Source of the DNA: Eubacteriales bacterium
GTDB taxonomy: Bacteria > Bacillota > Clostridia > Oscillospirales > CAG-382
Direction of reading: 5' to 3'
Assembly: GCA_045580005.1 (NCBI GenBank)
Contig: JAZNMZ010000009.1
Coordinates: 21,154-85,153 of the forward strand
DNA length: 64,000 nt
The translations under genes and the position numbers were made by a program. The stretch's first letter is position 1; every line of letters begins with the position of its first letter. Under the pieces are notes generated by a model that saw nothing but the letters and a program-made list of their open reading frames with translations, did no database searches and was not told the DNA's origin. This document shows, piece after piece, positions 12,527 to 25,235 of this stretch.

Positions 12527-13306
12527 TTGAAGAAAGCGGTAATCAGTGATATAGACGGCTCTTTAATATACAGAGGTCATCATCTGAACAAGACAAGATT
12601 TCCTCTTATGCTCAAAAAGCTGAGCGACAAAGATATTGCTTTTTGTCTTGCAACCGGCAGAACATACGGCGATGTCGCGTGTCTTTTTGGAGATCTTCTT
12701 GACGGGGTACATATTTTATGCTGTGACGGTGCGCTTAGCATCACAGGACACAAGATTGTTCATTCCTTCCCTATCAGAAGCTATTTTCTTTCCTACTTTT
12801 TTGATTTTGCAAAAAACCAAACCGACACCTATGTAAATCTTCATAAATCCTTTGCGATTGAATTTCACGGATATACGCACTCATATATTTTCACTCACAG
12901 TGCTTGTCTTTATCATAAGGAAGCTGCAAAGCTGAAAAACCTCAAGAGGATTTCTGCTCTTGAAGAAATAAAAGAAGATATATTTAAAATCAGTCTGTTT
13001 AGCAACAGCTCGATTGGTACACCTGACGGATTGCGTATTTGCTACGATAAGGGCGGTATTACCGAGTATGTACCCAAAGCTGCCACAAAGCTCTCGGCAG
13101 CAAAAGACCTGTCGGATAGACTTGGCATCCCACTTAGCTGTTTCACAGCATTCGGCGACAGCGATAACGACGCTGAGTTGCTTTGCGCCTGCGGGTGTTC
13201 ATACTCCACTTACTGCGCGCAAAAAGAAGTATTTGAGCTGACAGACCACCATACAAGAGATGTGATCGGCACAGTGATAAGACTTGCCGATGAAAAAGTA
13301 TTATAA
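12527..13306 (+). CDS. Cof-type HAD-IIB phosphatase
   Basis: Motif I SDIDGSL, ATGR, and motif IV GDSDND. TTG start at 12527 preferred, with AAGGTGGA 5 nt upstream, giving the typical (M)KKAVISDIDG N-terminus. Confidence 0.8.
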   Translation: MKKAVISDIDGSLIYRGHHLNKTRFPLMLKKLSDKDIAFCLATGRTYGDVACLFGDLLDGVHILCCDGALSITGHKIVHSFPIRSYFLSYFFDFAKNQTDTYVNLHKSFAIEFHGYTHSYIFTHSACLYHKEAAKLKNLKRISALEEIKEDIFKISLFSNSSIGTPDGLRICYDKGGITEYVPKAATKLSAAKDLSDRLGIPLSCFTAFGDSDNDAELLCACGCSYSTYCAQKEVFELTDHHTRDVIGTVIRLADEKVL

Positions 13307-13331
13307 ACAACACCACAAAAGAGGTTGTAAA

Positions 13332-15860
13332 ATGGATAAGTACACAGTAAAAGACATTCCGAAAACCGAAAGAATCTCAAGGCTGATAGATGCGCTCTAC
13401 GACCATCTCCCCGAGATTGAGGCAGACCGCGCGGTTCTTCTTACAGAATCTTATAAGATGACAGAAAACGAGCCAATTATCACACGCAGAGCAAAGGCAT
13501 TTGCGCATATTTGCGAGAATATTCCTGTCACTATCCGCGACAACGAGCTTATTGTCGGAAGTGCAACAAAGGTGCCGAGAGGCTGTCAGGTGTTCCCTGA
13601 GTTTTCGTTTGAGTGGCTTGAGTCGGAGTTTGATACAATTGAACACCGCACTGCAGATCCTTTCCATATTTCCGAACAGACCAAAGAAACACTTCACGAA
13701 GTGTACAAGTACTGGAAGGGTAAAACAACAAGTGAGCTTGCAACAGCGTATATGTCTCCCGAAACTCTCAAGGCTATCGAGCACAATATATTCACTCCCG
13801 GTAACTACTTCTATAACGGCGTAGGTCATGTTACCGTCAACTACGGTAAAATTTTAGCAAACGGACTTGACGGTATAATTGAAGAGGCAAAAAGCGCTCT
13901 TTCCGACATTAAGTTTTCTGATAGTGATTATTCAAAAAAGACTCACTTTTTAAACGCAGTTATTGAAAGCTGCAAGGCGGCAGAAACTTATGCCGCAAGA
14001 TACGCAAAACTCGCTCTTGAGCTCGCAGAAAAAGAAAAAGACCCTAAGCGCAAGGCAGAACTAATAGTTATTGCTTCTAACTGCTCTAATGTCCCTAAGA
14101 AAGGTGCTGCAAACTTCTATGAAGCGTGTCAGTCTTTCTGGTTTATACAGATGCTTCTGCAGACAGAGTCAAGCGGACATTCTATCTCGCCCGGCAGATT
14201 TGATCAGTATATGTATCCTTATTATAAAAAGGATATTGATGCAGGCAAAATAACTATGGAAGCGGCACAGGAGCTTATGGACTGTATCTGGGTTAAGCTC
14301 AATGACCTCAACAAGGCAAGAGACGCGGCAAGTGCCGAGGGATTTGCAGGTTACAGCCTTTTCCAGAATCTTATCGCAGGCGGTCAGGACGAAAACGGAC
14401 TTGACGCAACGAACGACCTATCTTTTATGTGCATACAGGCAACAAAGCATGTACTTTTGCCTCAGCCGTCTTTCTCTGTTCGTGTCTGGAACGGCACACC
14501 GCATGAATTTCTTATAAAAGCCGCAGAGCTCACACGCACTGGCGTAGGTCTTCCTGCATATTACAACGACGAAGTAATTATCCCCTCTCTTCTCAACAGA
14601 GGTCTTACTATTGAGGACGCGAGAGACTACAATATAATCGGATGTGTAGAGCCTCAGAAATCAGGCAAAACAGAGGGCTGGCATGATGCAGCGTTCTACA
14701 ATATGTGTCGACCGCTTGAGCTTGTTTTTACAGACGGGTACGATAACGGCGAGTTTATCGGAGTACATACAGGCGATGTAACAAAGTTTAAGACATTCGA
14801 TGAGTTCTATGACGCATACAAGGCGCAGAACAACTATATGCTTGGCCTTCTTGTGAATGCAGACAACGCTATCGATGTTGCGCACAGCGAGAGATGTCCC
14901 CTGCCGTTCCTTTCAGGAATGATAGAGGACTGTATAGGCAAAGGTAAGAGTGTACAGGAGGGCGGCGCTGTATATAACTTCACCGGTCCTCAGGGTTTTG
15001 GTGTTGCAAATATGGCAGACTCGCTTTATGCTGTCAAGAAGCTTGTATTTGATGAGAAAAAGATTACAATGTCAGAACTCAAGGAAGCTCTCGAACACAA
15101 CTTTGGAGAGGATATTCCCGACAGCATTGCGCAAAAGAAAACTGTAGAAGCAATAAAGAAGCTTTCGGAATCCGGAAGAGCGGTTACAAAGCTTGTCATT
15201 GAAGATACATATAAAAAAGAAAAATCTCTCGGTATGCAACAGTTCCAGAGAACAAGGTACAGAAAGATACGCGAAATGATTGAAGCTGTACCAAAGTTCG
15301 GCAACGACATCCCCGAAGTGGATGCATTTGCAAGAGATGTGGCTTATACTTATACAAGACCTCTTGAAACTTTCAAAAACCCGAGAGGTGGTATGTATCA
15401 GGCAGGACTCTACCCTGTTTCCGCAAATGTTCCTCTTGGTGCTCAGACTGGAGCCACTCCTGACGGCAGGCTTGCTTACACTCCTGTTGCAGACGGTGTA
15501 TCTCCCTCTGCTGGAAAAGACCTCAAGGGCCCTACAGCAACAGCTAATTCTGTATCAAAGCTTGACCATGGTATCGCTTCAAACGGTACATTGTTTAATA
15601 TGAAGTTCCACCCATCGGCACTTGAGGGCAGAGCTGGCCTTGAGAGCTTTGTGGCGCTTATACGAGCATACTTTGATCAGAAAGGCAGCCATGTACAATT
15701 TAATGTTGTAAGCCGTGAAACGCTTAAGGATGCTCAGCTGCACCCTGAAAACTATAAATCGCTTGTTGTGCGAGTTGCCGGATACAGCGCGCTCTTTACC
15801 ACGCTTTCAAAGTCGCTGCAGGATGACATCATCAACCGTACAGAGCAGGGCGGCTTCTGA
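13332..15860 (+). CDS. glycyl radical enzyme, B12-independent 1,2-propanediol dehydratase type
   Basis: C-terminal glycyl radical motif VVRVAGYSALF. Thiyl loop IIGCVEPQ (Cys-x-Glu). NGVGH histidine. 842 aa from the ATG at 13332, with AGAGG upstream. Counted from that start, the residues are His166, Cys438, Glu440 and Gly817. Confidence 0.9.
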   Translation: MDKYTVKDIPKTERISRLIDALYDHLPEIEADRAVLLTESYKMTENEPIITRRAKAFAHICENIPVTIRDNELIVGSATKVPRGCQVFPEFSFEWLESEFDTIEHRTADPFHISEQTKETLHEVYKYWKGKTTSELATAYMSPETLKAIEHNIFTPGNYFYNGVGHVTVNYGKILANGLDGIIEEAKSALSDIKFSDSDYSKKTHFLNAVIESCKAAETYAARYAKLALELAEKEKDPKRKAELIVIASNCSNVPKKGAANFYEACQSFWFIQMLLQTESSGHSISPGRFDQYMYPYYKKDIDAGKITMEAAQELMDCIWVKLNDLNKARDAASAEGFAGYSLFQNLIAGGQDENGLDATNDLSFMCIQATKHVLLPQPSFSVRVWNGTPHEFLIKAAELTRTGVGLPAYYNDEVIIPSLLNRGLTIEDARDYNIIGCVEPQKSGKTEGWHDAAFYNMCRPLELVFTDGYDNGEFIGVHTGDVTKFKTFDEFYDAYKAQNNYMLGLLVNADNAIDVAHSERCPLPFLSGMIEDCIGKGKSVQEGGAVYNFTGPQGFGVANMADSLYAVKKLVFDEKKITMSELKEALEHNFGEDIPDSIAQKKTVEAIKKLSESGRAVTKLVIEDTYKKEKSLGMQQFQRTRYRKIREMIEAVPKFGNDIPEVDAFARDVAYTYTRPLETFKNPRGGMYQAGLYPVSANVPLGAQTGATPDGRLAYTPVADGVSPSAGKDLKGPTATANSVSKLDHGIASNGTLFNMKFHPSALEGRAGLESFVALIRAYFDQKGSHVQFNVVSRETLKDAQLHPENYKSLVVRVAGYSALFTTLSKSLQDDIINRTEQGGF

Positions 15861-15897: not shown

Positions 15898-16689
15898 ATG
15901 ATTGAGCAATACAAAGACATAAAAGGGAGAGTCTTTGATATTCAAAGATTCTCTGTCCACGACGGACCCGGAATACGGACGATAGTATTCCTCAAGGGAT
16001 GTCGTCTTCGCTGTCGCTGGTGCTGTAATCCTGAGTCTCAGGAGTATGAAATTCAAAAGATGCTCAAAGGCGGCAAACAAGAAACCGTTGGCTACGACAC
16101 AACTGTAGGACAGGTTATGGAAGATATTCTAAAGGACGCACCATACTACAGACGCTCAGGCGGAGGTGTTACACTCTCGGGTGGTGAAGCGCTGTGTCAG
16201 CCTGATTTTGCGGTGGCTCTTCTTTCTGCTTGCAAGGAATACGGTCTGTCGACCGCTATTGAAACAACAGGCTTTGCAGACTATTCTGTGATAGAAAGAT
16301 ACATACCTGTGTGCGATCATTTTCTTATGGACATCAAACACACAAACAGCGACAAGCACAAGGAGTTCACTACACAGCCAAACGAACTTATCCTCGAGAA
16401 TGCAAAGAAGATTGCAAAAAACGCCAAGCACCTTGTGATAAGAGTACCTACCATCCCCACATTCAACGACACTGTCGAAGAAATATCCGACATTGCAAAA
16501 TTTGCGTCATCTCTTGTCAGTGTCGATGAGCTTCATCTTCTGCCATACCACAAGCTCGGTTATGACAAGTATGTGGGGCTTGGCCGGCAGTATCTTATGG
16601 GAGATCTCCCCTCGCCGGGTGCAGACAAAATGCAAGAGCTGAAAAAAGCTGCTGAAAAATACATAAACAATGTAATAATCGGCGGATAA
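15898..16689 (+). CDS. glycyl-radical enzyme activating enzyme (radical SAM)
   Basis: [13 protein letters not shown]3CX2C (CRLRCRWC) followed by CNPES, and GGE motif SGGEAL. 263 aa. Confidence 0.9.
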
Positions 16690-16717
16690 GCATCAAAAAC
16701 ACAAAGGATTGATTACG

Positions 16718-17113
16718 ATGAACAATATAGACAAGATTCTATCGCAATACAGGGGTCCTGGTGAAGACAAGCTGAGAATAATACAGGAGCTTGTTCCGGG
16801 TAAGCAGATAACACTTGCTCATATCATTGCAAACCCCAATGAGATTCTGTACCGGAAGCTCGGTCTTGATCCGTCACTTGACTACTCTCACGCCGCAATC
16901 GGAGTTATAACTATGAGTCCTAGTGAAACGGCAATTATTGCAGCTGATATAAGTATGAAAGCGTCGGGCGTTGAGCTTGGTTTTGTTGACAGATTCAGCG
17001 GTACTCTTATCATCACTGGAAGTATCTCGGATGTAGAAGCAGCATTCCGTGCTGTTCTTGAATATGCGGTAGAAAAACTCGGTTTTTCTGTATGTGAGCT
17101 TACAAGAACATAA
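16718..17113 (+). CDS. BMC shell protein, circularly permuted PduU/EutS type
   Basis: [22 protein letters not shown]-terminal region and a permuted BMC fold signature. ATG at 16718 with AAGGA upstream. Confidence 0.8.
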
Positions 17114-17116
17114 TTT

Positions 17117-17578
17117 ATGAAAAAAATTATTCTTATAGGACGCAGCGAGAGCGGTAAGACAACATTGACTCAAGCGCTCAAGGGCGAGAAGATCACATAC
17201 AATAAAACACAGTATGTAAACCACTATGATGTAATTATCGACACCCCCGGCGAATACATACAGACAAAGACGCTCGGAGGCGCGTTGGCAGTATACTCGT
17301 ATGAGGCAGATGTTGTCGGACTTCTTGTGAGTGCAACTGAGCCATTTTCACTGTTCAGTCCGAATGTAGTCAGTATGGCGACCCGCGAGGTTATCGGCAT
17401 TGTCACAAAAATTAACGACAACGGCGCAAACATTGCTCTTGCTGACAGATGGCTTGAGCTGTCTGGATGCAAAACAATTTTCCATGTAGACTCAAAGACA
17501 GGTGAAGGAATAACTGACATTCTCTCGCACCTCAAAGAGTCGGACGACGAGCCTCTCCCCTGGGAAAGCAAGTCGTAA
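17117..17578 (+). CDS. EutP/PduV family microcompartment-associated GTPase
   Basis: P-loop GRSESGKTTL, DTPGE and a size of about 150 aa. Typical of PduV/EutP. Confidence 0.85.
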   Translation: MKKIILIGRSESGKTTLTQALKGEKITYNKTQYVNHYDVIIDTPGEYIQTKTLGGALAVYSYEADVVGLLVSATEPFSLFSPNVVSMATREVIGIVTKINDNGANIALADRWLELSGCKTIFHVDSKTGEGITDILSHLKESDDEPLPWESKS

Positions 17579-17657: not shown

Positions 17658-18461
17658 ATGGCATCAGAATACGCAATTAAAGTGCAGATGTGTGAAATCG
17701 GCAAGAGAATTTACGACAGAGGCATGGTTGCTTCTAACGACGGTAACATTTCTGTTAAGGTGGGCGCAGATGAATATCTTTGCACACCCACAGGTGTATC
17801 AAAGGGCTTTATGACACCCGAGTACATCTGTAAAGTAAACGGCAGAGGCGAAGTTCTTGAGGCTTATGAAGGCTTCAAACCCTCCTCAGAAATTAAAATG
17901 CATCTTCGTGTTTACAAGGAAAGACCTGATGTAAACTCTGTTGTTCATGCACACCCTATGTATGCAACAGGCTTTGCTATCGCAGGTATTCCGCTTACAG
18001 CACAGATCATGCCAGAAGCTGTTATCGCTCTCGGATGTGTTCCGATTGCTGAATACGGCACACCCTCAACTGAAGAGATTCCCGACGCAGTTTCTAAGTA
18101 TCTGCAGCACTATGACGCAGTTCTTCTTGAAAATCACGGAGCTCTCGCTTTCTCTGATTCACTTCTCAACGCATATCACAAGATGGAATCAGTTGAATTC
18201 TACGCACAGCTTATGTTCATCTCAACACTTCTCGGTGGTCCCAAGGAACTGTCACCCGAACAGGTTCAGAGACTTTACGAAATCCGCCGTCAGTTTGGTA
18301 TGAAGGGTAAGCACCCCGCTGACCTCTGTCCCAACCTCGCAGCAGGCAAGCCTGCTTGTCCTAATTGCACAGGCGACTGCGGCAGCCACACAGCAACATC
18401 AAGCGACGCCGATGTTATTTCCGAGATTACAAAGAGAGTACTTGCACAGCTCGGCAAATAA
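17658..18461 (+). CDS. class II aldolase (L-fuculose/L-rhamnulose-1-phosphate aldolase type) with C-terminal extension
   Basis: NDGNISV, SSEIKMH and VVHAHP zinc-ligand motifs. About 215-aa core plus a 53-aa tail ending in DADVISEITKRVLAQLGK. Confidence 0.85.
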   Translation: MASEYAIKVQMCEIGKRIYDRGMVASNDGNISVKVGADEYLCTPTGVSKGFMTPEYICKVNGRGEVLEAYEGFKPSSEIKMHLRVYKERPDVNSVVHAHPMYATGFAIAGIPLTAQIMPEAVIALGCVPIAEYGTPSTEEIPDAVSKYLQHYDAVLLENHGALAFSDSLLNAYHKMESVEFYAQLMFISTLLGGPKELSPEQVQRLYEIRRQFGMKGKHPADLCPNLAAGKPACPNCTGDCGSHTATSSDADVISEITKRVLAQLGK

Positions 18462-18477
18462 TTTTCGGTGACCATCT

Positions 18478-18984
18478 ATGGATAACGCTAAAATAAAAGG
18501 CATAGTAGATTCTATCTCATACGAACTGAAAAAGGAAAAGTCTACATACACGACAGACACAATTACTCTGCGTCTTGCAAAAAGGGTTGCAAAAAGAGTT
18601 GAACAAAGAGCAACTGAGCTTGGCGTCCACGCTGTTATTGCAATATGCTCGAATGCAGCAAGACCAGTTCTCGTACACTGTATGGATGACTCGTATATCG
18701 CGAGCTATGATATAGCTTTTAACAAGGCATATACATCCGCTTCGATAAAAATGTCTACAAAAGTACTCAAGGGACTGAGCCAGCCACACTCACCTCTTTA
18801 CGGCATTCAGAATACGAACGACGGAAAGATTGTGATTTTCGGCGGCGGTGAGCCCTTAGTACTTGGAGGCAAAATTATCGGTGCCCTCGGTGTCAGCGGT
18901 GGCAGCGAAGAGCAGGACACACTGCTTGCGGCATACGGAGCTTCGGTTCTCGAGGAAGAAGCTAAAGAATGCCTACAAATATAA
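18478..18984 (+). CDS. GlcG/HbpS-like DUF336 protein (PduO C-terminal domain-like)
   Basis: GGGEPLVLGGKIIGALGVSGGSEEQD signature, preceded by an extra N-terminal extension of about 25 aa. Confidence 0.8.
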   Translation: MDNAKIKGIVDSISYELKKEKSTYTTDTITLRLAKRVAKRVEQRATELGVHAVIAICSNAARPVLVHCMDDSYIASYDIAFNKAYTSASIKMSTKVLKGLSQPHSPLYGIQNTNDGKIVIFGGGEPLVLGGKIIGALGVSGGSEEQDTLLAAYGASVLEEEAKECLQI

Positions 18985-18998
18985 GATGGAGTAAAATA

Positions 18999-20222
18999 AT
19001 GGACTACAACAAGGAAAATATTGAAGAAATCGTGAAGCAGGTTCTTGCAGGCATGGTTGGCGAGGTGGCAACAGCTACCAGCGCTCCTGCCGCTCCCAGA
19101 AGAACTACTGGTGGAGCTGTTCCTTCAACAGCAAGAGTGGCTATGCTCACAGGCATCGAAAAGTTTGAGATCAAGACTTATCCTATGCCTGAAGTCGGCG
19201 ACGACGACATTCTTGTTAAGGTTGAGGGCTGCGGTATCTGCGGCACCGACGCTCACGAGTATAAGCGCGACCCGTTTGGCCTTATCCCTGTAGCACTCGG
19301 ACATGAGGGCACAGGCGAGATTGTCAAAATGGGCAAGAATGTAACAAAAGACAGTGCAGGAAAACCCCTCAAAGTCGGCGACAAGGTTGTAACCTGTATG
19401 ATATTTAAGGATAATCCAGATATCACAATGTTTGACCTTAACAAGCAGAATGTAGGCGGTGCTGATGTATACGGTCTTTTGCCTGATGACGATGTTCATC
19501 TCAACGGTTGGTTTGCCGATTACATCATTGTAAGAAAAGGCTCTACTATATTCAATGTAAGCGATCTTGACCTCGACTCAAGAATTCTTATCGAGCCCTG
19601 CGCAGTTCTTATCCACGCTGTAGAGCGTGCGAAGACAACTGGTATACTCCGCTTTAACAGCAGAGTAGTTGTACAGGGCTGCGGACCTATCGGTCTTATT
19701 TGTATCGCTGTACTTCGTACAATGGGTATCGAAAACATTGTTGCTGTTGACGGCAATGCCAAAAGACTCCAGTTTGCAAAGAGAATGGGTGCTGACCACA
19801 CAGTGAACTTTACAGAGCATAAGGGCATTGAAGCTCTTACAGATGCTGTAAAGGATGCTTTTGGCGGCTATCTTGCTGACTTTGCGTTTCAGTGTACAGG
19901 AAGCCCTGTAGCTCACGCAAACATCTATAAGTTTATCCGCAATGGCGGAGGTCTTTGCGAACTTGGCTTCTTTATCAACGGCGGCGACGCTACAATTAAC
20001 CCTCACTTTGACATCTGCTCAAAGGAAATCACAACTGTCGGCTCATGGGTATACACACTTCGTGACTACGCAACAACATTTGATTTTCTAAAAAGAGCAA
20101 TCGCTATCGGTCTTCCTATCAAAGAGCTTATCACACATAAGTATCCGCTTGACAAAATTAATGACGCGTTTATTACAAATGTCAAGATGGAAGGTCTTAA
20201 GATAGCTATAGTCAATAAATAA
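18999..20222 (+). CDS. Zn-dependent medium-chain (MDR) alcohol dehydrogenase with N-terminal encapsulation-peptide-like extension
   Basis: EGCGICGTDAHE and GHEGTGEIV zinc motifs, and the Rossmann motif VVQGCGPIGL. ATG at 18999 with GGAG upstream. The N-terminal 50 aa are a helix plus an Ala/Pro/Thr linker. Confidence 0.8.
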   Translation: MDYNKENIEEIVKQVLAGMVGEVATATSAPAAPRRTTGGAVPSTARVAMLTGIEKFEIKTYPMPEVGDDDILVKVEGCGICGTDAHEYKRDPFGLIPVALGHEGTGEIVKMGKNVTKDSAGKPLKVGDKVVTCMIFKDNPDITMFDLNKQNVGGADVYGLLPDDDVHLNGWFADYIIVRKGSTIFNVSDLDLDSRILIEPCAVLIHAVERAKTTGILRFNSRVVVQGCGPIGLICIAVLRTMGIENIVAVDGNAKRLQFAKRMGADHTVNFTEHKGIEALTDAVKDAFGGYLADFAFQCTGSPVAHANIYKFIRNGGGLCELGFFINGGDATINPHFDICSKEITTVGSWVYTLRDYATTFDFLKRAIAIGLPIKELITHKYPLDKINDAFITNVKMEGLKIAIVNK

Positions 20223-20240
20223 TCAAAGGAGTAAATGCTA

Positions 20241-20555
20241 ATGACAGAAGCAGTCGGCATTATCGAGGTTTACGGTCTTGTAGCAGCCTTTGTCGCTTGT
20301 GACGCAGGATGTAAAGCAGCGAATGTGAGAGCAGAAACCTTTGATAAAAACAAACCAAAAAAGCCTGACGAGCTCAAGGTGCCGCTTATTGTGGCTGTTA
20401 AGTTCAGAGGAAGTGTTGACGCGGTAACATCGGCTATAGATGCAGCCGAAGCTGCGGCAAACCAGGTATCAGGCGTAGTAACAAAACACATTATAGCCCG
20501 TCCCGAGAACGGCACCGAAAAGATGCTCAAGCTCTCAGGACTCGACAAAAAATAA
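20241..20555 (+). CDS. BMC-H shell protein, divergent (expanded pore loop)
   Basis: BMC domain AVGIIEVYGLVAAFVACDAGCKAANV...HIIARP. The canonical IGSG pore loop is replaced by FDKNKPKKPDELKVP. Confidence 0.75.
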   Translation: MTEAVGIIEVYGLVAAFVACDAGCKAANVRAETFDKNKPKKPDELKVPLIVAVKFRGSVDAVTSAIDAAEAAANQVSGVVTKHIIARPENGTEKMLKLSGLDKK

Positions 20556-20588
20556 TTTAAAACTTTTATTAAACGGAGGAAATTTAAA

Positions 20589-20864
20589 ATGGCACAGGAA
20601 GCATTAGGAATGGTAGAAACAAGAGGTCTTACAGCAGCTATCGAAGCAGCAGACTCTATGGTTAAGGCCGCAGAAGTAACACTTGTTGGAACAGAAAAGA
20701 TCGGTTCCGGACTCGTAAGCGTTATGGTACGCGGTGATGTTGGCGCAGTTAAGGCGGCAGTTGAGGTTGGCGGCGAGGCAGCTTCCAGACTCGGAGAGCT
20801 TGTTGCTACACATGTAATCCCCAGACCTCACGCTGATGTTGAGAAGATTCTTCCCAAGTTCTAA
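20589..20864 (+). CDS. BMC-H shell protein, canonical PduA/PduJ type
   Basis: [25 protein letters not shown]...[22 protein letters not shown]...HVIPRPH. 91 aa. Confidence 0.92.
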
Positions 20865-20894
20865 TCTAAACCAGATACATAAAGGATGAAGAAT

Positions 20895-21200
20895 ATGAAA
20901 TCTCTAGGACTCGTCGAAGTTTCCGGAGTAGTTGCCGCAGTTGACGCGCTCGATATCATGTGCAAAAGCGCGAATGTATCTTTTGTTACATGGGAACGCA
21001 AGCTCGGTGGCAGACTTGTTACAATCATTGTAACCGGAAGCGTTTCAGATGTTACCGAAGCGATTGAATGTGTAAAGCAAAATGCGTCAGTCCCCCTCTG
21101 CGCGTATGCTGTTATTGCAAATCCGCACGAGGAAACAATCCGCATAGCTGAGCTTAGCGCATCAAGAATCAAAAAAGCAGCAGACGCTGCAAAAAATTAA
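20895..21200 (+). CDS. BMC-H shell protein, divergent (KLGGRLV pore, C-terminal helix)
   Basis: SLGLVEVSGVVAAVDALDIMCKSANV...VIANPH with a C-terminal tail IRIAELSASRIKKAADAAKN. ATG at 20895 preferred, with AAGGA 8 nt upstream. Confidence 0.75.
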   Translation: MKSLGLVEVSGVVAAVDALDIMCKSANVSFVTWERKLGGRLVTIIVTGSVSDVTEAIECVKQNASVPLCAYAVIANPHEETIRIAELSASRIKKAADAAKN

Positions 21201-21217
21201 CTTAAGAGGAAAATAAC

Positions 21218-21649
21218 ATGGCTGAAAAGATTGAAAAATCCGCACCCAAGAAAAAGACAGGCGCGGTAAAGAAAACAGCTACTGTATCCCCTGCTGCAAA
21301 ACCTGTTGCAGCAAAGACAGAAACAAAAACAACAAATAATACTAAAGATAGTCTAACGGAGGTAAAAGTTATGACACAGTTAGCATTAGGCATGATCGAA
21401 ACAAGAGGACTTGTTGCAGCAGTTGAAGCAGCAGATGCTATGCTCAAGGCAGCAAATGTAGAGCTTGTTGGAACTGAAAAGATCGGTTCCGGACTCGTGA
21501 GCGTAATGGTTCGCGGCGATGTTGGCGCAGTTAAGGCAGCAGTTGAAGCTGGTGCTTCTTCTGCAGAGCGTCTCGGCGAAGTTATTGCAACTCATGTAAT
21601 CCCCAGACCTCATGCAGATGTTGAAAAGATTCTTCCCGCCCTTAAATAA
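21218..21649 (+). CDS. BMC-H shell protein, PduA/PduJ type, with a 51-aa Lys/Ala/Thr-rich N-terminal extension (alternative internal start at 21371)
   Basis: The C-terminal 92 aa are a close paralog of 20589..20864. Both the ATG at 21218 (AGAGGA upstream) and the in-frame ATG at 21371 (GGAGG 8 nt upstream) have good RBSs. Confidence 0.8.
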
Positions 21650-21709
21650 GGCGACCCTTAAATAAGAGCAATCTTATACAATAATACGAATCTTTTTAAC
21701 CTCGGTTGT

Positions 21710-21736
21710 CCTGCGAAGACCTCGCGTCTTCGCAGG
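21710..21736 (+). other. GC-rich intra-operon stem-loop (no T-run)
   Basis: CCTGCGAAGAC-CTCGC-GTCTTCGCAGG, a perfect 11-bp stem in the 164-bp gap between the shell BMC-H genes and the BMC-P gene. Confidence 0.5.
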
Positions 21737-21813
21737 GGACTCCCGAACACCTGCCGAAAAATCGGCAAAATACCAAACAGATATCTAATTGATATCGGAT
21801 TAAAGGTGAAAAT

Positions 21814-22080
21814 ATGATTATTGGAAAAATCGTCGGAAATGTAGTTTCTACAAAAAAGAACGAAAACCTAACTGGTGGAAAGTTCCTTGTTGTGGAAGTA
21901 TATTCTTCTATGGCGAACGATAAAAGAAAAATGGTGGCAGTTGACAATGTCGGAGCCGGAATGGGCGACATTGTGTTGGTAGCACAGGGCAGTGCCGCAC
22001 GACTTGCTTGTCAGGATGAAAAGCTTCCTATTGACGCAGCGGTTGTCGGTATTGTAGATACAGCCACCGGACTGGAGTAA
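21814..22080 (+). CDS. BMC-P pentameric vertex protein (EutN/PduN/CcmL family)
   Basis: MIIGKIVGNVVSTKK...GKFLVVE...AVDNVGAG.GD.VLV. 88 aa. Confidence 0.9.
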   Translation: MIIGKIVGNVVSTKKNENLTGGKFLVVEVYSSMANDKRKMVAVDNVGAGMGDIVLVAQGSAARLACQDEKLPIDAAVVGIVDTATGLE

Positions 22081-22089
22081 TATAAAGTT

Positions 22090-23418
22090 ATGGTATTAAC
22101 AGAACTTGTTGAAACAATGAAGAAAAGCGGTGTCGCCGGAGCAGGCGGAGCCGGATTTCCTTCCTATGCAAAGCTCGACAAACGAGCTGACACCATAATC
22201 CTTAACTGTGCAGAGTGTGAACCGCTCCTCAAGCTCCATAGACAGGTACTCGAGAAATACGCTTACGAAATTTTAAGCACACTTACAACTATTGCTGACG
22301 CTGTAGAGGCAGACAGTGTTATTATCGCTGTTAAGTCCTCCTACAAGGGAGCTGTTGAGGCTGTTAAAAATAACCTCAGCAAATTTCCCAAGGTATCTAT
22401 CGGACTTCTTCCCGAAATTTACCCTGCAGGAGACGAAGTTGTAACAATCTATGAAACAACAAAGAGAGTTGTCGCTCCCGGTGCACTTCCTATCACTGTC
22501 GGAGTTACAGTTTTCAATGTTGAAACAATTCTCAATGTTTATAATGCAATCAATTCTGACTCCCCTGTTACTACAAAGTATATCACAATAGCAGGTGAAG
22601 TAAAGAATCCGATTACACTCAAAGCGCCTCTCGGTATTACATATGCAGAGCTTATAGAAATGGCAGGCGGAGCAACAGTTTCCGATTATAAGCTGATCGG
22701 CGGCGGTCCTATGACAGGTCGTATTGTTTCTCCTACTGATGTAGTAACAAAGACATCAAACGCTATTCTTGTTCTCCCCTCAAATCATTCCTTGATACTC
22801 AAAAAAACATCAAAGATTCAGATTGACATGAAGAGAGCTAAAGCGGCTTGCTGCCAGTGCAGAATGTGTACTGATTTGTGCTCAAGAAACCTGCTTGGTC
22901 ATCCTATTGAGCCACACGCGTTTATGCGTTCGGTTACAACAGGAAACACACAGGATGTTGCGCCCTTTATCAACACTATGTTCTGCTCACAGTGTGGACT
23001 TTGCGAGCTTTATGCTTGTGGTCAAGGTCTCTCCCCCAGAACTCTTATAGGTGAATACAAGAACGGATTGCGCGCTGCAGGAGTAAAGCCTCCGGTTGAC
23101 GCAAAGTTTGACGAAGTTCATCCCAACAGAGAAATCAGAAGAGTTCCTATGGGCAGACTCACAGCGAGACTTGGACTTACAGCATACAACAAACCTGCTC
23201 CCCTTGTTGACGAAACAGTTAATGCAGGCAAGGTTAAGATTATGCTCTCTCAGAGCATAGGTGCTCCTGCGACCGCTATTGTCAAAAAAGGCGACAAGGT
23301 TTCAGTCGGTCAGGTTATAGGAGAGGCTGCCGAAGGCAAGCTTTCTATGCCTGTACACGCTTCAATCAACGGCAAGGTTGTTGACGCAAACGACAGATTC
23401 GTTGTAATCGAGGCATAA
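22090..23418 (+). CDS. PduS-like Fe-S flavoprotein (RnfC/51K-like NADH-binding, SLBB, 2x[4Fe-4S])
   Basis: GVAGAGGAGFPSYAKL, an SLBB-like segment, and Cys clusters CCQCRMCTDLC and CSQCGLCELYAC. Confidence 0.85.
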   Translation: MVLTELVETMKKSGVAGAGGAGFPSYAKLDKRADTIILNCAECEPLLKLHRQVLEKYAYEILSTLTTIADAVEADSVIIAVKSSYKGAVEAVKNNLSKFPKVSIGLLPEIYPAGDEVVTIYETTKRVVAPGALPITVGVTVFNVETILNVYNAINSDSPVTTKYITIAGEVKNPITLKAPLGITYAELIEMAGGATVSDYKLIGGGPMTGRIVSPTDVVTKTSNAILVLPSNHSLILKKTSKIQIDMKRAKAACCQCRMCTDLCSRNLLGHPIEPHAFMRSVTTGNTQDVAPFINTMFCSQCGLCELYACGQGLSPRTLIGEYKNGLRAAGVKPPVDAKFDEVHPNREIRRVPMGRLTARLGLTAYNKPAPLVDETVNAGKVKIMLSQSIGAPATAIVKKGDKVSVGQVIGEAAEGKLSMPVHASINGKVVDANDRFVVIEA

Positions 23419-23483
23419 AGCAATTACATGGTTTTACCCCATAAAAACCCAGCCGAATAAAGATATATGGGGAGAAAGGATGT

Positions 23484-23509
23484 TTTTCATCAAAGATTTT
23501 TGATGAAAA
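23484..23509 (+). other. AT-rich hairpin in the pduS-pduT intergenic gap
   Basis: TTTTCATCAAA-GATT-TTTGATGAAAA, a perfect 11-bp stem. Confidence 0.35.
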
Positions 23510-23525
23510 CTCACGGTTATTATCA

Positions 23526-24074
23526 ATGAGTAAAGCAATCGGAATGGTTGAACTTCAGACAGTGTCCGCAGGCATTACCAGCGCGGATCTGATGCTTAAG
23601 ACCGCAGAGGTCGAAGTGATTGAAAGTCAGCCTGTATGTCCGGGAAAATACATAGTTCTTATCAGTGGCGATCTCAGCGCTGTTAAGGCGGCTGTGGACT
23701 CAGCTAAGGCAAAGGTCGGAGCGAAGCTTGTAGGAAGCTTTGTTCTCGGCAATCCTCATGAGTCTATTTTCCCTGCTCTTTATGGCGCAACTCAGGTAGA
23801 AGATGTAAAAGCTCTCGGTGTTCTTGAAACATTCTCGGCAGCTGATATTATCACTGCAGCTGACGCAGCAGCAAAGACATCTTTGGTTGACCTTATCGAG
23901 CTTCGTGTCGCCAGAGGTTTGGGCGGCAAATCCTATATGCTTATCACGGGCGATGTAGCAGCGGTTACAGCAGCTATCGAAAAGGCGCAGACAGAAGTGT
24001 CCGAAAACGGTATGCTTCTTGACAGCTCAATTATTGCAAATCCTGATAAGCGCCTTTGGGAAAATATCCTTTAA
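23526..24074 (+). CDS. BMC-T tandem-domain shell protein, PduT type
   Basis: Two BMC domains in 182 aa. PVCPGKY places a Cys at the position of the PduT pore [4Fe-4S] ligand. Confidence 0.85.
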   Translation: MSKAIGMVELQTVSAGITSADLMLKTAEVEVIESQPVCPGKYIVLISGDLSAVKAAVDSAKAKVGAKLVGSFVLGNPHESIFPALYGATQVEDVKALGVLETFSAADIITAADAAAKTSLVDLIELRVARGLGGKSYMLITGDVAAVTAAIEKAQTEVSENGMLLDSSIIANPDKRLWENIL

Positions 24075-24092: not shown

Positions 24093-25235
24093 ATGAACAC
24101 ATTCAGACTATCTACTCAGGTCTGTTTTGACGAGAATGCACTCGATATTCTTTCTCAATACAAGAACTTGAATGCCGTTATTTTTACAGACGCCTTTATG
24201 GTAAAGTCAGGTGCTGCTGATAGAATAGCAAAGAAGCTTTCTGGCTGCTCAAGTGTAAAAATTTTTGGTGAAGTTATGCCTGACCCACCTATCGAGCTTG
24301 TAGTCAAGGGACTCAGATTTCTCCTTGATGCAAATGCTGATATCATAGTAGCTCTCGGAGGCGGCTCATCAATTGATGCTGCCAAAGCGGTACTTCTAAT
24401 GGCAAAAAGTTCAGGTAAAAAGCAGAATATCAAACTTGTGGCAATACCGACAACAAGCGGTACAGGCTCTGAGGTTACTCAGTTCTCTGTTATTACAGAT
24501 AAGCAGGCAGGTGTCAAGTATCCTCTTGTACATGAGGCTTTACAGCCGGATGTTGCGATTCTTGACGCAGAGCTTGTGCGCACCGCTCCCCCGTCGGTAA
24601 CTGCAGATACAGGATTTGATGTTATCACACACGCTCTTGAGGCATATATTTCTACAAAAGCAAACGAATTCTCTGACGCTCTTGCGGAAAAAGCTCTTGA
24701 GCTTGCCTTTGAATATCTGCCGCAGGCATACAAGGACGGCAATGATCTTGTTGCAAGAGAAAAAATGCATAAAGCCTCTTGCCTTGCAGGAATGGCATTT
24801 AACACCGTAAGTCTTGGGGTCAATCACGGTATTGCTCACGCGCTCGGTGCGAAGTTCCATATTCCTCACGGAAGAGCAAATGCAATGCTCCTGCCGCATG
24901 TTATGAAGTTCAACGCTGACCTGTCAAACAACTTTGACACAGCTGAATACACTGTAACTGCAAAGAAGCTGGCTAAAATAGCAAAAATCATTGGACTCAA
25001 TGCAACAAACACGCATTTTGCTGTCGTATCTCTTATAAAGCATATTCAGAGCTTGGAAAAAATATCAGGCATTCCCTCTACCCTTGCCGAAGCAAAGGTA
25101 TCAAAAGAGGATTATCTCGCTCAAAAGGATTCTATTATTAACAGTGCCCTTAACGATGCATGTACCGCGACCAATCCTCGCGAGATGACAGCACAGGGTG
25201 TTGAAAGTATCTTAAATTGTATTGCAACTTATTAA
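24093..25235 (+). CDS. iron-containing alcohol dehydrogenase (FucO/PduQ/EutG family)
   Basis: GGGSSIDAAK, PTTSGTGSEVT, TGFDVITHALEAY and HGIAHALG...HG metal-ligand histidines. 380 aa. Confidence 0.85.
   Translation: MNTFRLSTQVCFDENALDILSQYKNLNAVIFTDAFMVKSGAADRIAKKLSGCSSVKIFGEVMPDPPIELVVKGLRFLLDANADIIVALGGGSSIDAAKAVLLMAKSSGKKQNIKLVAIPTTSGTGSEVTQFSVITDKQAGVKYPLVHEALQPDVAILDAELVRTAPPSVTADTGFDVITHALEAYISTKANEFSDALAEKALELAFEYLPQAYKDGNDLVAREKMHKASCLAGMAFNTVSLGVNHGIAHALGAKFHIPHGRANAMLLPHVMKFNADLSNNFDTAEYTVTAKKLAKIAKIIGLNATNTHFAVVSLIKHIQSLEKISGIPSTLAEAKVSKEDYLAQKDSIINSALNDACTATNPREMTAQGVESILNCIATY

Follow-up and report, generated by a model that had tools for sequence, protein, structure and literature searches.

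A conserved cysteine cluster between the lid and the encapsulation peptide of class II aldolases from bacterial microcompartments, a candidate metal site

A 64,000-nucleotide stretch of contig JAZNMZ010000009.1 from a Eubacteriales bacterium (NCBI GenBank assembly GCA_045580005.1, positions 21,154 to 85,153 of the forward strand), hereafter the window, contains a gene for a class II (FucA-type) aldolase within a bacterial microcompartment (BMC) locus of the GRM5 type, one of the glycyl-radical microcompartments of gut bacteria. The subject of this report is the C-terminal tail of that aldolase, in which a cluster of cysteines lies between the end of the enzyme fold and a terminal helix resembling an encapsulation peptide (EP). 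The cysteines are conserved throughout the GRM5 aldolases and recur in aldolases of two other microcompartment types, and they may form a metal site. The gene and the parts of its tail are listed below in window coordinates; residue numbers are those of the aldolase.

17658..18461, + strand: class II (FucA-type) aldolase gene, 267 amino acids plus stop (open reading frame list, Pfam PF00596, AlphaFold2 fold match)
18294..18314, + strand: end of the aldolase core, FGMKGKH (F213-H219), counterpart of FucA's mobile C-terminal lid (BLASTP and PDB alignments)
18327..18380, + strand: cysteine cluster C224-x9-C234-x2-C237-x3-C241, with the invariant G230 inside it (sequence, alignments)
18327-18329, 18357-18359, 18366-18368 and 18378-18380, + strand: codons of C224, C234, C237 and C241, respectively (translation)
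18381..18404, + strand: hypervariable Gly/Ser/Thr/Ala spacer, G242-S249 (column entropy, AlphaFold2 confidence score pLDDT below 50)
18405..18458, + strand: EP-like amphipathic helix, D250-K267, DADVISEITKRVLAQLGK (AlphaFold2, conservation, hydrophobic moment)

The body of the enzyme is closely related to FucA. The Aldolase_II domain (PF00596) occupies residues 10-186 with a score of 169.4 bits (Pfam gathering threshold 22.2; E=1e-49), and the AlphaFold2 model, with a mean predicted local distance difference test score (pLDDT) of 88 and values above 90 in the core, matches structures of E. coli FucA (1e4c, 2fua) in Foldseek with a template modelling (TM) score of 0.91 and a root-mean-square deviation of about 2.0 Å. 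The sequences of E. coli FucA and of solved FucA chains align with residues 22 to 216. The metal ligands H97, H99 and H160 and the catalytic glutamate E78 are retained, being equivalent to H92, H94, H155 and E73 of FucA, and the lid aromatic F213 aligns with FucA Y209; the coordinates of this residue-level alignment agree with the PDB search. FucA Y209F and R212A mutant structures are among the PDB and Foldseek matches of the aldolase. Joerger and colleagues are said to have described, in 2000, how the mobile C-terminal tail of FucA closes over the active site of the neighbouring subunit and plays a role in catalysis. From homology and from the pathway model for GRM5 (PMC6325248, PMC3557285), the enzyme would cleave L-fuculose-1-phosphate or L-rhamnulose-1-phosphate to dihydroxyacetone phosphate (DHAP) and L-lactaldehyde.

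FucA ends at about H219 of the aldolase, and the further 48 residues constitute the tail. A first-pass annotation, prepared from the letters of the window, had put the core at about 215 residues, which agrees with the extent of FucA homology, and had given the sequence of the tail exactly as the translation ends (...KGKHPADLCPNLAAGKPACPNCTGDCGSHTATSSDADVISEITKRVLAQLGK); the range of 18300-18461 that it assigned to the tail begins at about K216 and takes in the stop codon.

Among 5.8 billion proteins searched, 7,947 homologues were found, and conservation was read in the best 120 protein clusters (75-94% identity). All 120 have C224-x9-C234-x2-C237, with a fourth cysteine 2-7 residues further on. 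The same three cysteines are kept in 80/80 species-representative genomes (69-81% identity) from Oscillospiraceae, Acutalibacteraceae, Lachnospiraceae, Mediterraneibacter, Acetatifactor, Anaerocolumna, Herbinix and others, a set obtained by a scan with a 10-sequence alignment, which yielded the close family only. Among these species the distance from C224 to C234 shrinks to 6-8 residues in four, and the fourth cysteine is absent from seven, five of which have a histidine three residues past C237. When 88 sequences of the same architecture were aligned, including two homologues at only 38-40% identity, the invariant positions of the tail were R210, H219, P220, C224, G230, C234, C237 and V261; column entropy was 0 bits at C224, C234 and C237, while C241 was conserved in 93% of sequences, at variable spacing. 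Conservation among orthologues was the test that the first-pass annotation had set for its four-cysteine motif, and the cysteines pass it, three being invariant and C241 largely kept. The motif itself, C-x9-C-x2-C-x3-C, is present as described, but what is conserved is a unit of three cysteines with a variable fourth ligand and not a fixed set of four.

Immediately beyond the cluster conservation breaks down. Residues 242-251 have entropies of 2.3-2.9 bits in the 88-sequence alignment, with insertions, deletions and variation in length. At each cysteine position both codons (TGT and TGC) are used across species; at C224 there are 16 TGT and 63 TGC. Because three cysteines stay invariant beside a hypervariable spacer, and do so through synonymous codon turnover, the alignments indicate that the cluster is more than a product of chance and is under selection. 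To judge from the same columns, the region published as a 'linker' is made of two parts, a conserved cysteine segment (219-241) and a short variable spacer (242-251), of which the spacer alone is truly a flexible linker. Core positions C12, C42, C58, C127 and H174 seemed to co-vary with the tail cluster, a signal confounded by phylogeny, with the close family dominating.

These data bear on the simplest alternative, that the cysteines have no dedicated function and are a compositional or historical feature that the linker tolerates. Such an explanation would sit well with the published survey, which saw no conservation in linkers (PMC4594438), with the disorder that AlphaFold2 sees in this segment, and with the existence of EP-bearing aldolases that have no cysteine. 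It does not account for three positions that stay invariant in more than 200 sequences at identities as low as 38%, next to a spacer that is hypervariable and with synonymous codon turnover, nor for the independent recurrence of the pattern in two other families described below, and we regard it as very improbable. Chance composition was rejected on the ground of that invariance.

The last part of the tail is predicted to be helical at about residues 250-264 (pLDDT about 72-78 in two AlphaFold2 runs). Its hydrophobic moment is 0.52, compared with 0.27 for shuffled sequences (p about 0.04), and I257, T258, V261 and L265 are each at least 90% conserved. We regard it as a putative EP. It is terminal and amphipathic, stands behind a variable spacer in the product of a microcompartment locus, and is missing from short aldolases that are not associated with microcompartments; it thus has every property of an EP that a sequence can display. 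The EP-like amphipathic pattern that had been noticed in the last 18 residues is therefore borne out by the predicted helix and its moment, and the accompanying proposal that the sugar phosphate is cleaved inside the shell matches the published model (PMC4594438, PMC6325248), being correct but not new. An EP of about 17 amino acids was reported at the C-terminus of 21/23 BMC-associated class II aldolases, GRM5 included, by Aussignargues et al. 2015 (PMC4594438), and was restated for the ACI, PVM and GRM5 types by Sutter et al. 2021 (PMC8217296); a review of glycyl-radical microcompartments draws the aldolase inside the shell (PMC6325248). A further suggestion, that the cysteines control the packaging of cargo, fared less well: EP-bearing aldolases without cysteine exist (P0178, P0207 and P0139), so that cysteines are no general requirement of tails that carry an EP.

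The wider distribution of the cysteines was read in 150 representatives of 50%-identity clusters, 107 of which have a near-complete core. The extension is absent from 39 short-tail representatives, and 35 of these have no cysteine past the core. Long tails with an EP-like end occur in 44; at least one cysteine falls within the first 35 tail residues in 37 of them and at least two in 24, mostly as C-x2-C-x2-C. Long- and short-tail aldolases are weakly separated by neighbour-joining and nearest-neighbour analysis of the representative cores (agreement 0.65 versus 0.50 when permuted).

Two lineages outside GRM5 were followed; their genomic context, like that of the other distant lineages, comes from single-protein look-ups, in which several contigs are too short to inform. 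In the first, the locus of P0203 (L088) encodes a CsoS1D-type BMC-T, BMC-H, three BMC-P and an aldehyde dehydrogenase, and the family, which includes Minicystis (Myxococcota), belongs to the HO-type microcompartment. All 119 of its members have C-x2-C-x2-C, with the consensus P-C-[DE]-[HQ]-C-N-A-C-P, and in 102 the cysteines number three. In the second, P0200/P0275 (L090) adjoins BMC-H and a BMC-P triplet, and the family, which includes Vicinamibacteria (Acidobacteriota), is of the ACI type. Here the first cysteine is present in 117/117, followed by the remainder of C-V-D-C-P-x-C-G in 54 and standing alone in 50. With the core alignment as anchor, the first cysteine of the tail-bearing aldolases in the GRM5, HO-like and ACI-like families lies 6-12 residues past the lid glycine in 355 of 356 sequences, and 17 residues past it in the remaining one. 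The cysteine feature extends beyond GRM5 to the HO-like and ACI-like microcompartment aldolases. ACI-like members that have the first cysteine only (among P0399-P0517) keep an offset of +6 from the lid glycine. Within that family the first cysteine seems, from its distribution, to be constrained separately from the remainder of the cluster and more strongly.

Some distant relatives depart from this arrangement. P0146 (L082-L084) and P0217 (L089) combine a C-x2-C-x2-C cluster with an EP-like helix, and no shell gene was found within 10 kb of either; one of the two lies in a rhamnose-utilisation operon (RhaA, PfkB kinase, ABC transporter, Dak1/Dak2, FGGY kinase) and the other beside YjeF and HAD genes. 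The microcompartment locus may be situated elsewhere in these genomes; otherwise the tail would function in some setting other than a microcompartment. At L087 a 241-aa aldolase (P0152), encoded directly downstream of BMC-H, carries C-N-S-C-T-G-C after the core and ends seven residues later, giving a cysteine cluster without spacer or EP helix; the contig is very short, and truncation or an assembly error is possible.

The behaviour of the first cysteine raises the possibility that it acts as a switch or lid thiol. C224 would reach the catalytic Zn or the aldehyde pocket of the neighbouring subunit. Either the enzyme would stay latent as long as its EP is not engaged in the microcompartment, or lactaldehyde would be held transiently; the other cysteines would be lineage-specific elaborations. 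The first cysteine alone is universal (356/356, in three families) at a near-fixed offset from the lid glycine; it persists without the others in the 50 ACI-like sequences, lies within a few residues of the equivalent of the FucA lid, and is tied to tail-bearing aldolases, being rare in short ones. This proposal leaves the invariant C234 and C237 of GRM5 and the C-x2-C-x2-C of the HO-like family unexplained, however, and the catalytic glutamate and histidine ligands are all intact; moreover, AlphaFold2 confidence at C224 is too low for the model to place it at the active site. On balance we think a switch of this kind unlikely.

Counting cysteines also bears on the option, offered in the first-pass annotation, that they are redox-active thiols whose intra- or inter-chain disulfides cross-link the tails, condense the cargo or gate its packaging. 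Redox-sensitive cysteines are known in carboxysome scaffold proteins, and those of the aldolase lie in a flexible, exposed segment. A related enzyme that shares the tetramer fold has a central cavity opening on its C-terminal side (PMC11841055), and therefore all four tails leave the tetramer on one face, a geometry that would favour cross-linking. Weighing on the other side, GRM5 hosts are strict anaerobes with a reducing cytoplasm; cysteines are often odd in number, three in 102/119 HO-like and one in 50/117 ACI-like sequences; 7/80 GRM5 species do without the fourth; and C-x2-C spacing suits metal chelation as much as dithiol-disulfide exchange. Disulfides are accordingly an improbable explanation for the cluster, and a reading based on disulfides alone was rejected as the leading one in view of the odd cysteine counts and the anaerobic hosts.

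The surroundings of the aldolase gene in the window are as follows, strand being given where it was recorded.

13284-15860, + strand: glycyl radical enzyme, which with its activating enzyme is the signature of the locus (Pfam PFL-like with Gly_radical)
15898-16689, + strand: short activating enzyme, 263 amino acids, without ferredoxin insert (Pfam Radical_SAM)
16709-17113, + strand: BMC-domain shell protein (Pfam BMC)
17117-17578, + strand: PduV/EutP GTPase, immediately upstream of the aldolase (Pfam PduV-EutP)
18478-18984: HbpS/GlcG-like (PF03928, DUF336-type) protein, between the aldolase and the lactaldehyde reductase
18969-20222: Zn-dependent alcohol dehydrogenase (Zn-ADH), lactaldehyde-reductase type (Pfam ADH_N/ADH_zinc_N)
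19014..19061, + strand: N-terminal EP-like helix of the adjacent Zn-ADH, ENIEEIVKQVLAGMVG (translation; same consensus as the aldolase helix)
20235..24074, + strand: shell and redox module comprising four BMC-H, one BMC-P (EutN), PduS and a PduT-type BMC-T (Pfam)
24093-25235: Fe-dependent alcohol dehydrogenase (Fe-ADH), after BMC-T

The published definition of GRM5 comprises an aldolase, a lactaldehyde reductase with pfam00107 and 08240, PduS and PduT in every case, and an activating enzyme without ferredoxin insert, and the PduT pore motif is given as C-P/S/A-G-K/R/S-Y/F (PMC6325248). Pfam matches and translations show that the locus fits, the pore motif of its PduT-type BMC-T being VCPGKY; the definition also excludes GrpU, for which no search aimed at a GrpU-type motif was made. 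Nearly all related loci in the 80-species set that have enough flank carry genes for the glycyl radical enzyme, shell proteins, PduS and the Zn-ADH. An HbpS/GlcG-like homologue is found in most related GRM5 loci, and one BMC-H of the window (21218-21649) has a Lys/Ala/Thr-rich low-complexity N-terminal extension of about 55 residues before its BMC domain. The 64-kb window contains no open reading frame for an acylating aldehyde dehydrogenase, an enzyme encoded in 65/80 related loci about 7-8.5 kb downstream of the aldolase; for phosphotransacylase no specific search was made. The closest relatives with full flanks (L001 and L008) are also without the aldehyde dehydrogenase and also have an Fe-ADH after BMC-T. 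The window may thus represent a GRM5 sub-variant that lacks the CoA-acylating branch, or the branch may be encoded at a satellite locus.

The Zn-ADH (18969-20222) has its probable true start at the ATG at 18999, and begins with an N-terminal extension, MDYNKENIEEIVKQVLAGMVG, that is followed by an Ala/Pro/Thr-rich linker without cysteine. The helix within this extension closely resembles that of the aldolase (EITKRVLAQL in the aldolase versus EIVKQVLAGM in the Zn-ADH), and the near-identical consensus suggests that the two enzymes use one binding partner.

In another form of metal site the cluster would hold an Fe-S centre, for example a [4Fe-4S] cluster on three cysteines whose fourth position is open or exchangeable; two or more subunits might share it. 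This would be an added redox or oxygen-sensing centre in a microcompartment where Fe-S proteins already abound, and could, for instance, halt the output of lactaldehyde in the presence of oxygen, which would inactivate the glycyl radical enzyme. The conserved unit of three cysteines is of the kind seen in site-differentiated [4Fe-4S] proteins, and distant variants are ferredoxin-like, namely C-x2-C-N-A-C-P in the HO-like family and C-T-N-C-G-A-C in P0135 and P0146; the tail of P0146 matches NADH_4Fe-4S in Pfam, weakly and non-significantly (E=0.09). The hosts of GRM5 are anaerobes, PduS and PduT are always present in GRM5 loci, and a C-terminal tetracysteine motif of PduK has been proposed to bind an Fe-S cluster (PMC6325248). 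Several observations pull the other way. Cleavage by the aldolase calls for no electron transfer, the canonical four-cysteine ferredoxin spacing is absent and the one Pfam match is not significant, and a similar cluster occurs in HO-like and ACI-like loci with neither PduS nor PduT seen nearby (L088, L090). Myxococcota and Acidobacteriota are, in addition, largely aerobic. An Fe-S centre is in our estimation a serious candidate, if a doubtful one.

Taken together, the evidence is best accommodated by a C-terminal extension of four parts, lid, putative metal-binding cysteine cluster, spacer and EP, and we would give this explanation as a whole about an even chance of being right. Its first part is the lid, which runs to H219 and is homologous to the mobile tail that would cover the active site of the neighbouring subunit in FucA. 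Next, C224, C234 and C237 would provide three fixed thiolates of a metal site, with C241 or a nearby histidine as the variable fourth ligand. The short hypervariable spacer follows as the third part, and the EP, as the fourth, would recruit the aldolase tetramer into the GRM5 microcompartment, where fuculose- or rhamnulose-1-phosphate would be converted to DHAP and lactaldehyde inside the shell. The cysteines are read as metal ligands and not as disulfide pairs because the fourth ligand is variable, because a histidine lies near its place in 5/7 species without it, and because cysteine numbers are odd elsewhere; the local sequences C-P-N-C-T-G and C-H-S-C-G-G are knuckle-like and fit such a role. 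Further support comes from the place of the cluster directly behind the lid equivalent, from the exit of all four tails on one face of the tetramer and from the absence of tail cysteines in 35 of the 39 short aldolases. As the metal, Zn2+ is favoured by a narrow margin over an Fe-S cluster. The site may fold only when metallated or within the tetramer, and, because the cluster starts about five residues past the lid, it would determine the place from which spacer and EP emerge. Lid closure, and hence activity, might also be coupled through it to metal or redox state or to tethering. The anatomy of the tail, its conservation, the microcompartment setting and the FucA fold are established here; metal binding, the kind of metal and any effect on catalysis or packaging are proposals.

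A number of results weigh against a metal site, and they come from structure prediction, from profile searches and from the distribution of the cysteines. In metal-free monomer AlphaFold2 models the cysteine segment has a pLDDT of 38-56, whether a deep, diverse alignment or a clean, same-architecture alignment is supplied, and neither run gives any metal-site geometry. AlphaFold2 usually models autonomous zinc fingers with confidence. The low score for the apo monomer is nonetheless compatible with a fold that depends on metal or on oligomerisation. Pfam searches of isolated tails at E<=10 produced noise only (zf_Rg at E=2.1, and the NADH_4Fe-4S match of the distant homologue P0146 given above), and PDB sequences searched with profiles of the GRM5 and HO-like cysteine segments gave zero matches at E<=10. 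The spacing corresponds neither to two CxxC knuckles nor to CxxCxxCxxxCP, and hence to no canonical motif. In place of the ferredoxin-type C-x2-C-x2-C-x3-C-P the window has C-x9-C-x2-C-x3-C-G and no Fer4 match in Pfam, and the C-x2-C-x2-C-P of the HO-like variant lacks a fourth cysteine. As to a zinc ribbon or rubredoxin-type Zn(Cys)4 site, there is one C-x2-C pair, no hairpin is predicted (at low confidence), and no zinc-finger match was found in Pfam or the PDB. About half of the ACI-like members keep one cysteine, which cannot make a metal site within a chain, and the cysteine-free EP-bearing aldolases named above show that such a tail can exist without the cluster.

If the four-part extension is correct, it would change how these tails are regarded. 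EP extensions have been treated, and engineered, as a helix on a featureless linker, and a conserved cluster directly behind the lid of this signature enzyme in GRM5, HO-type and ACI-type microcompartments would mean a second function, such as holding a metal cofactor, sensing redox state or switching activity. A cargo enzyme would then join the metal centres of the glycyl-radical microcompartments of gut bacteria, the three cysteines would offer a concrete handle on whether cargo activity is coupled to encapsulation, and aldolase tails should not be truncated or swapped as though they were inert. Should the cluster be a structural Zn knot and nothing else, the result is a modest refinement of annotation. 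A more ambitious extension, which we think rather unlikely, is that a previously unrecognised metal or redox module, lying between lid and EP in at least three types of organelle, puts aldolase activity under the control of metallation, redox state or encapsulation; in that event the first enzyme of the pathway would release toxic lactaldehyde only inside a functional shell.

Comparison with known systems places these features in context. E. coli FucA has the same fold, metal ligands, catalytic glutamate and C-terminal lid (F213 being equivalent to Y209), but it ends at residue 215, is cytosolic, and has no cysteine cluster, spacer or EP. In medium-chain alcohol dehydrogenases the structural Zn(Cys)4 lobe has the spacing C-x2-C-x2-C-x7-C, and WhiB-like [4Fe-4S] proteins have C-xn-C-x2-C-x5-C. 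In general type these spacings are comparable to those of the HO-like and ACI-like variant and of the GRM5 variant, with no homology detected, and the likeness, one of spacing alone, does not discriminate Zn from Fe-S. The tetracysteine extension of PduK and the pore cysteines of PduT and GrpU (PMC6325248) are also cysteine-rich motifs outside a main fold, with a putative or shown metal or Fe-S role; they differ in being carried by shell proteins and not by a cargo enzyme, and show no sequence similarity to the aldolase cluster. A review of Fe-S centres in glycyl-radical microcompartments treats PduS, PduT, GrpU, PduK and the activating enzymes, and not the aldolase (PMC6325248). Full-text searches of the literature for cysteines or iron-sulfur in microcompartment aldolases, within a scope that did not take in Zarzycki et al. 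2015, returned nothing relevant, and the cysteine cluster is apparently undescribed, the EP and cleavage inside the shell being already known. Table 2 of PMC4594438 does record 5.5% cysteine in aldolase linkers, the highest value of all linkers, without comment. The closest counterparts remain the EPs described for BMC aldolases of the GRM5, PVM, PVM-like, ACI and HO types (PMC4594438, PMC8217296), which belong to the same enzyme family, have a C-terminal amphipathic helix of about 17 amino acids behind a linker of 23-81 amino acids, and occur in GRM5 loci beside a lactaldehyde reductase and a glycyl radical enzyme. They differ in that the published linker has no conservation of composition or sequence, whereas here its first half is a conserved cysteine cluster and its last 8-15 residues or so are the variable part.

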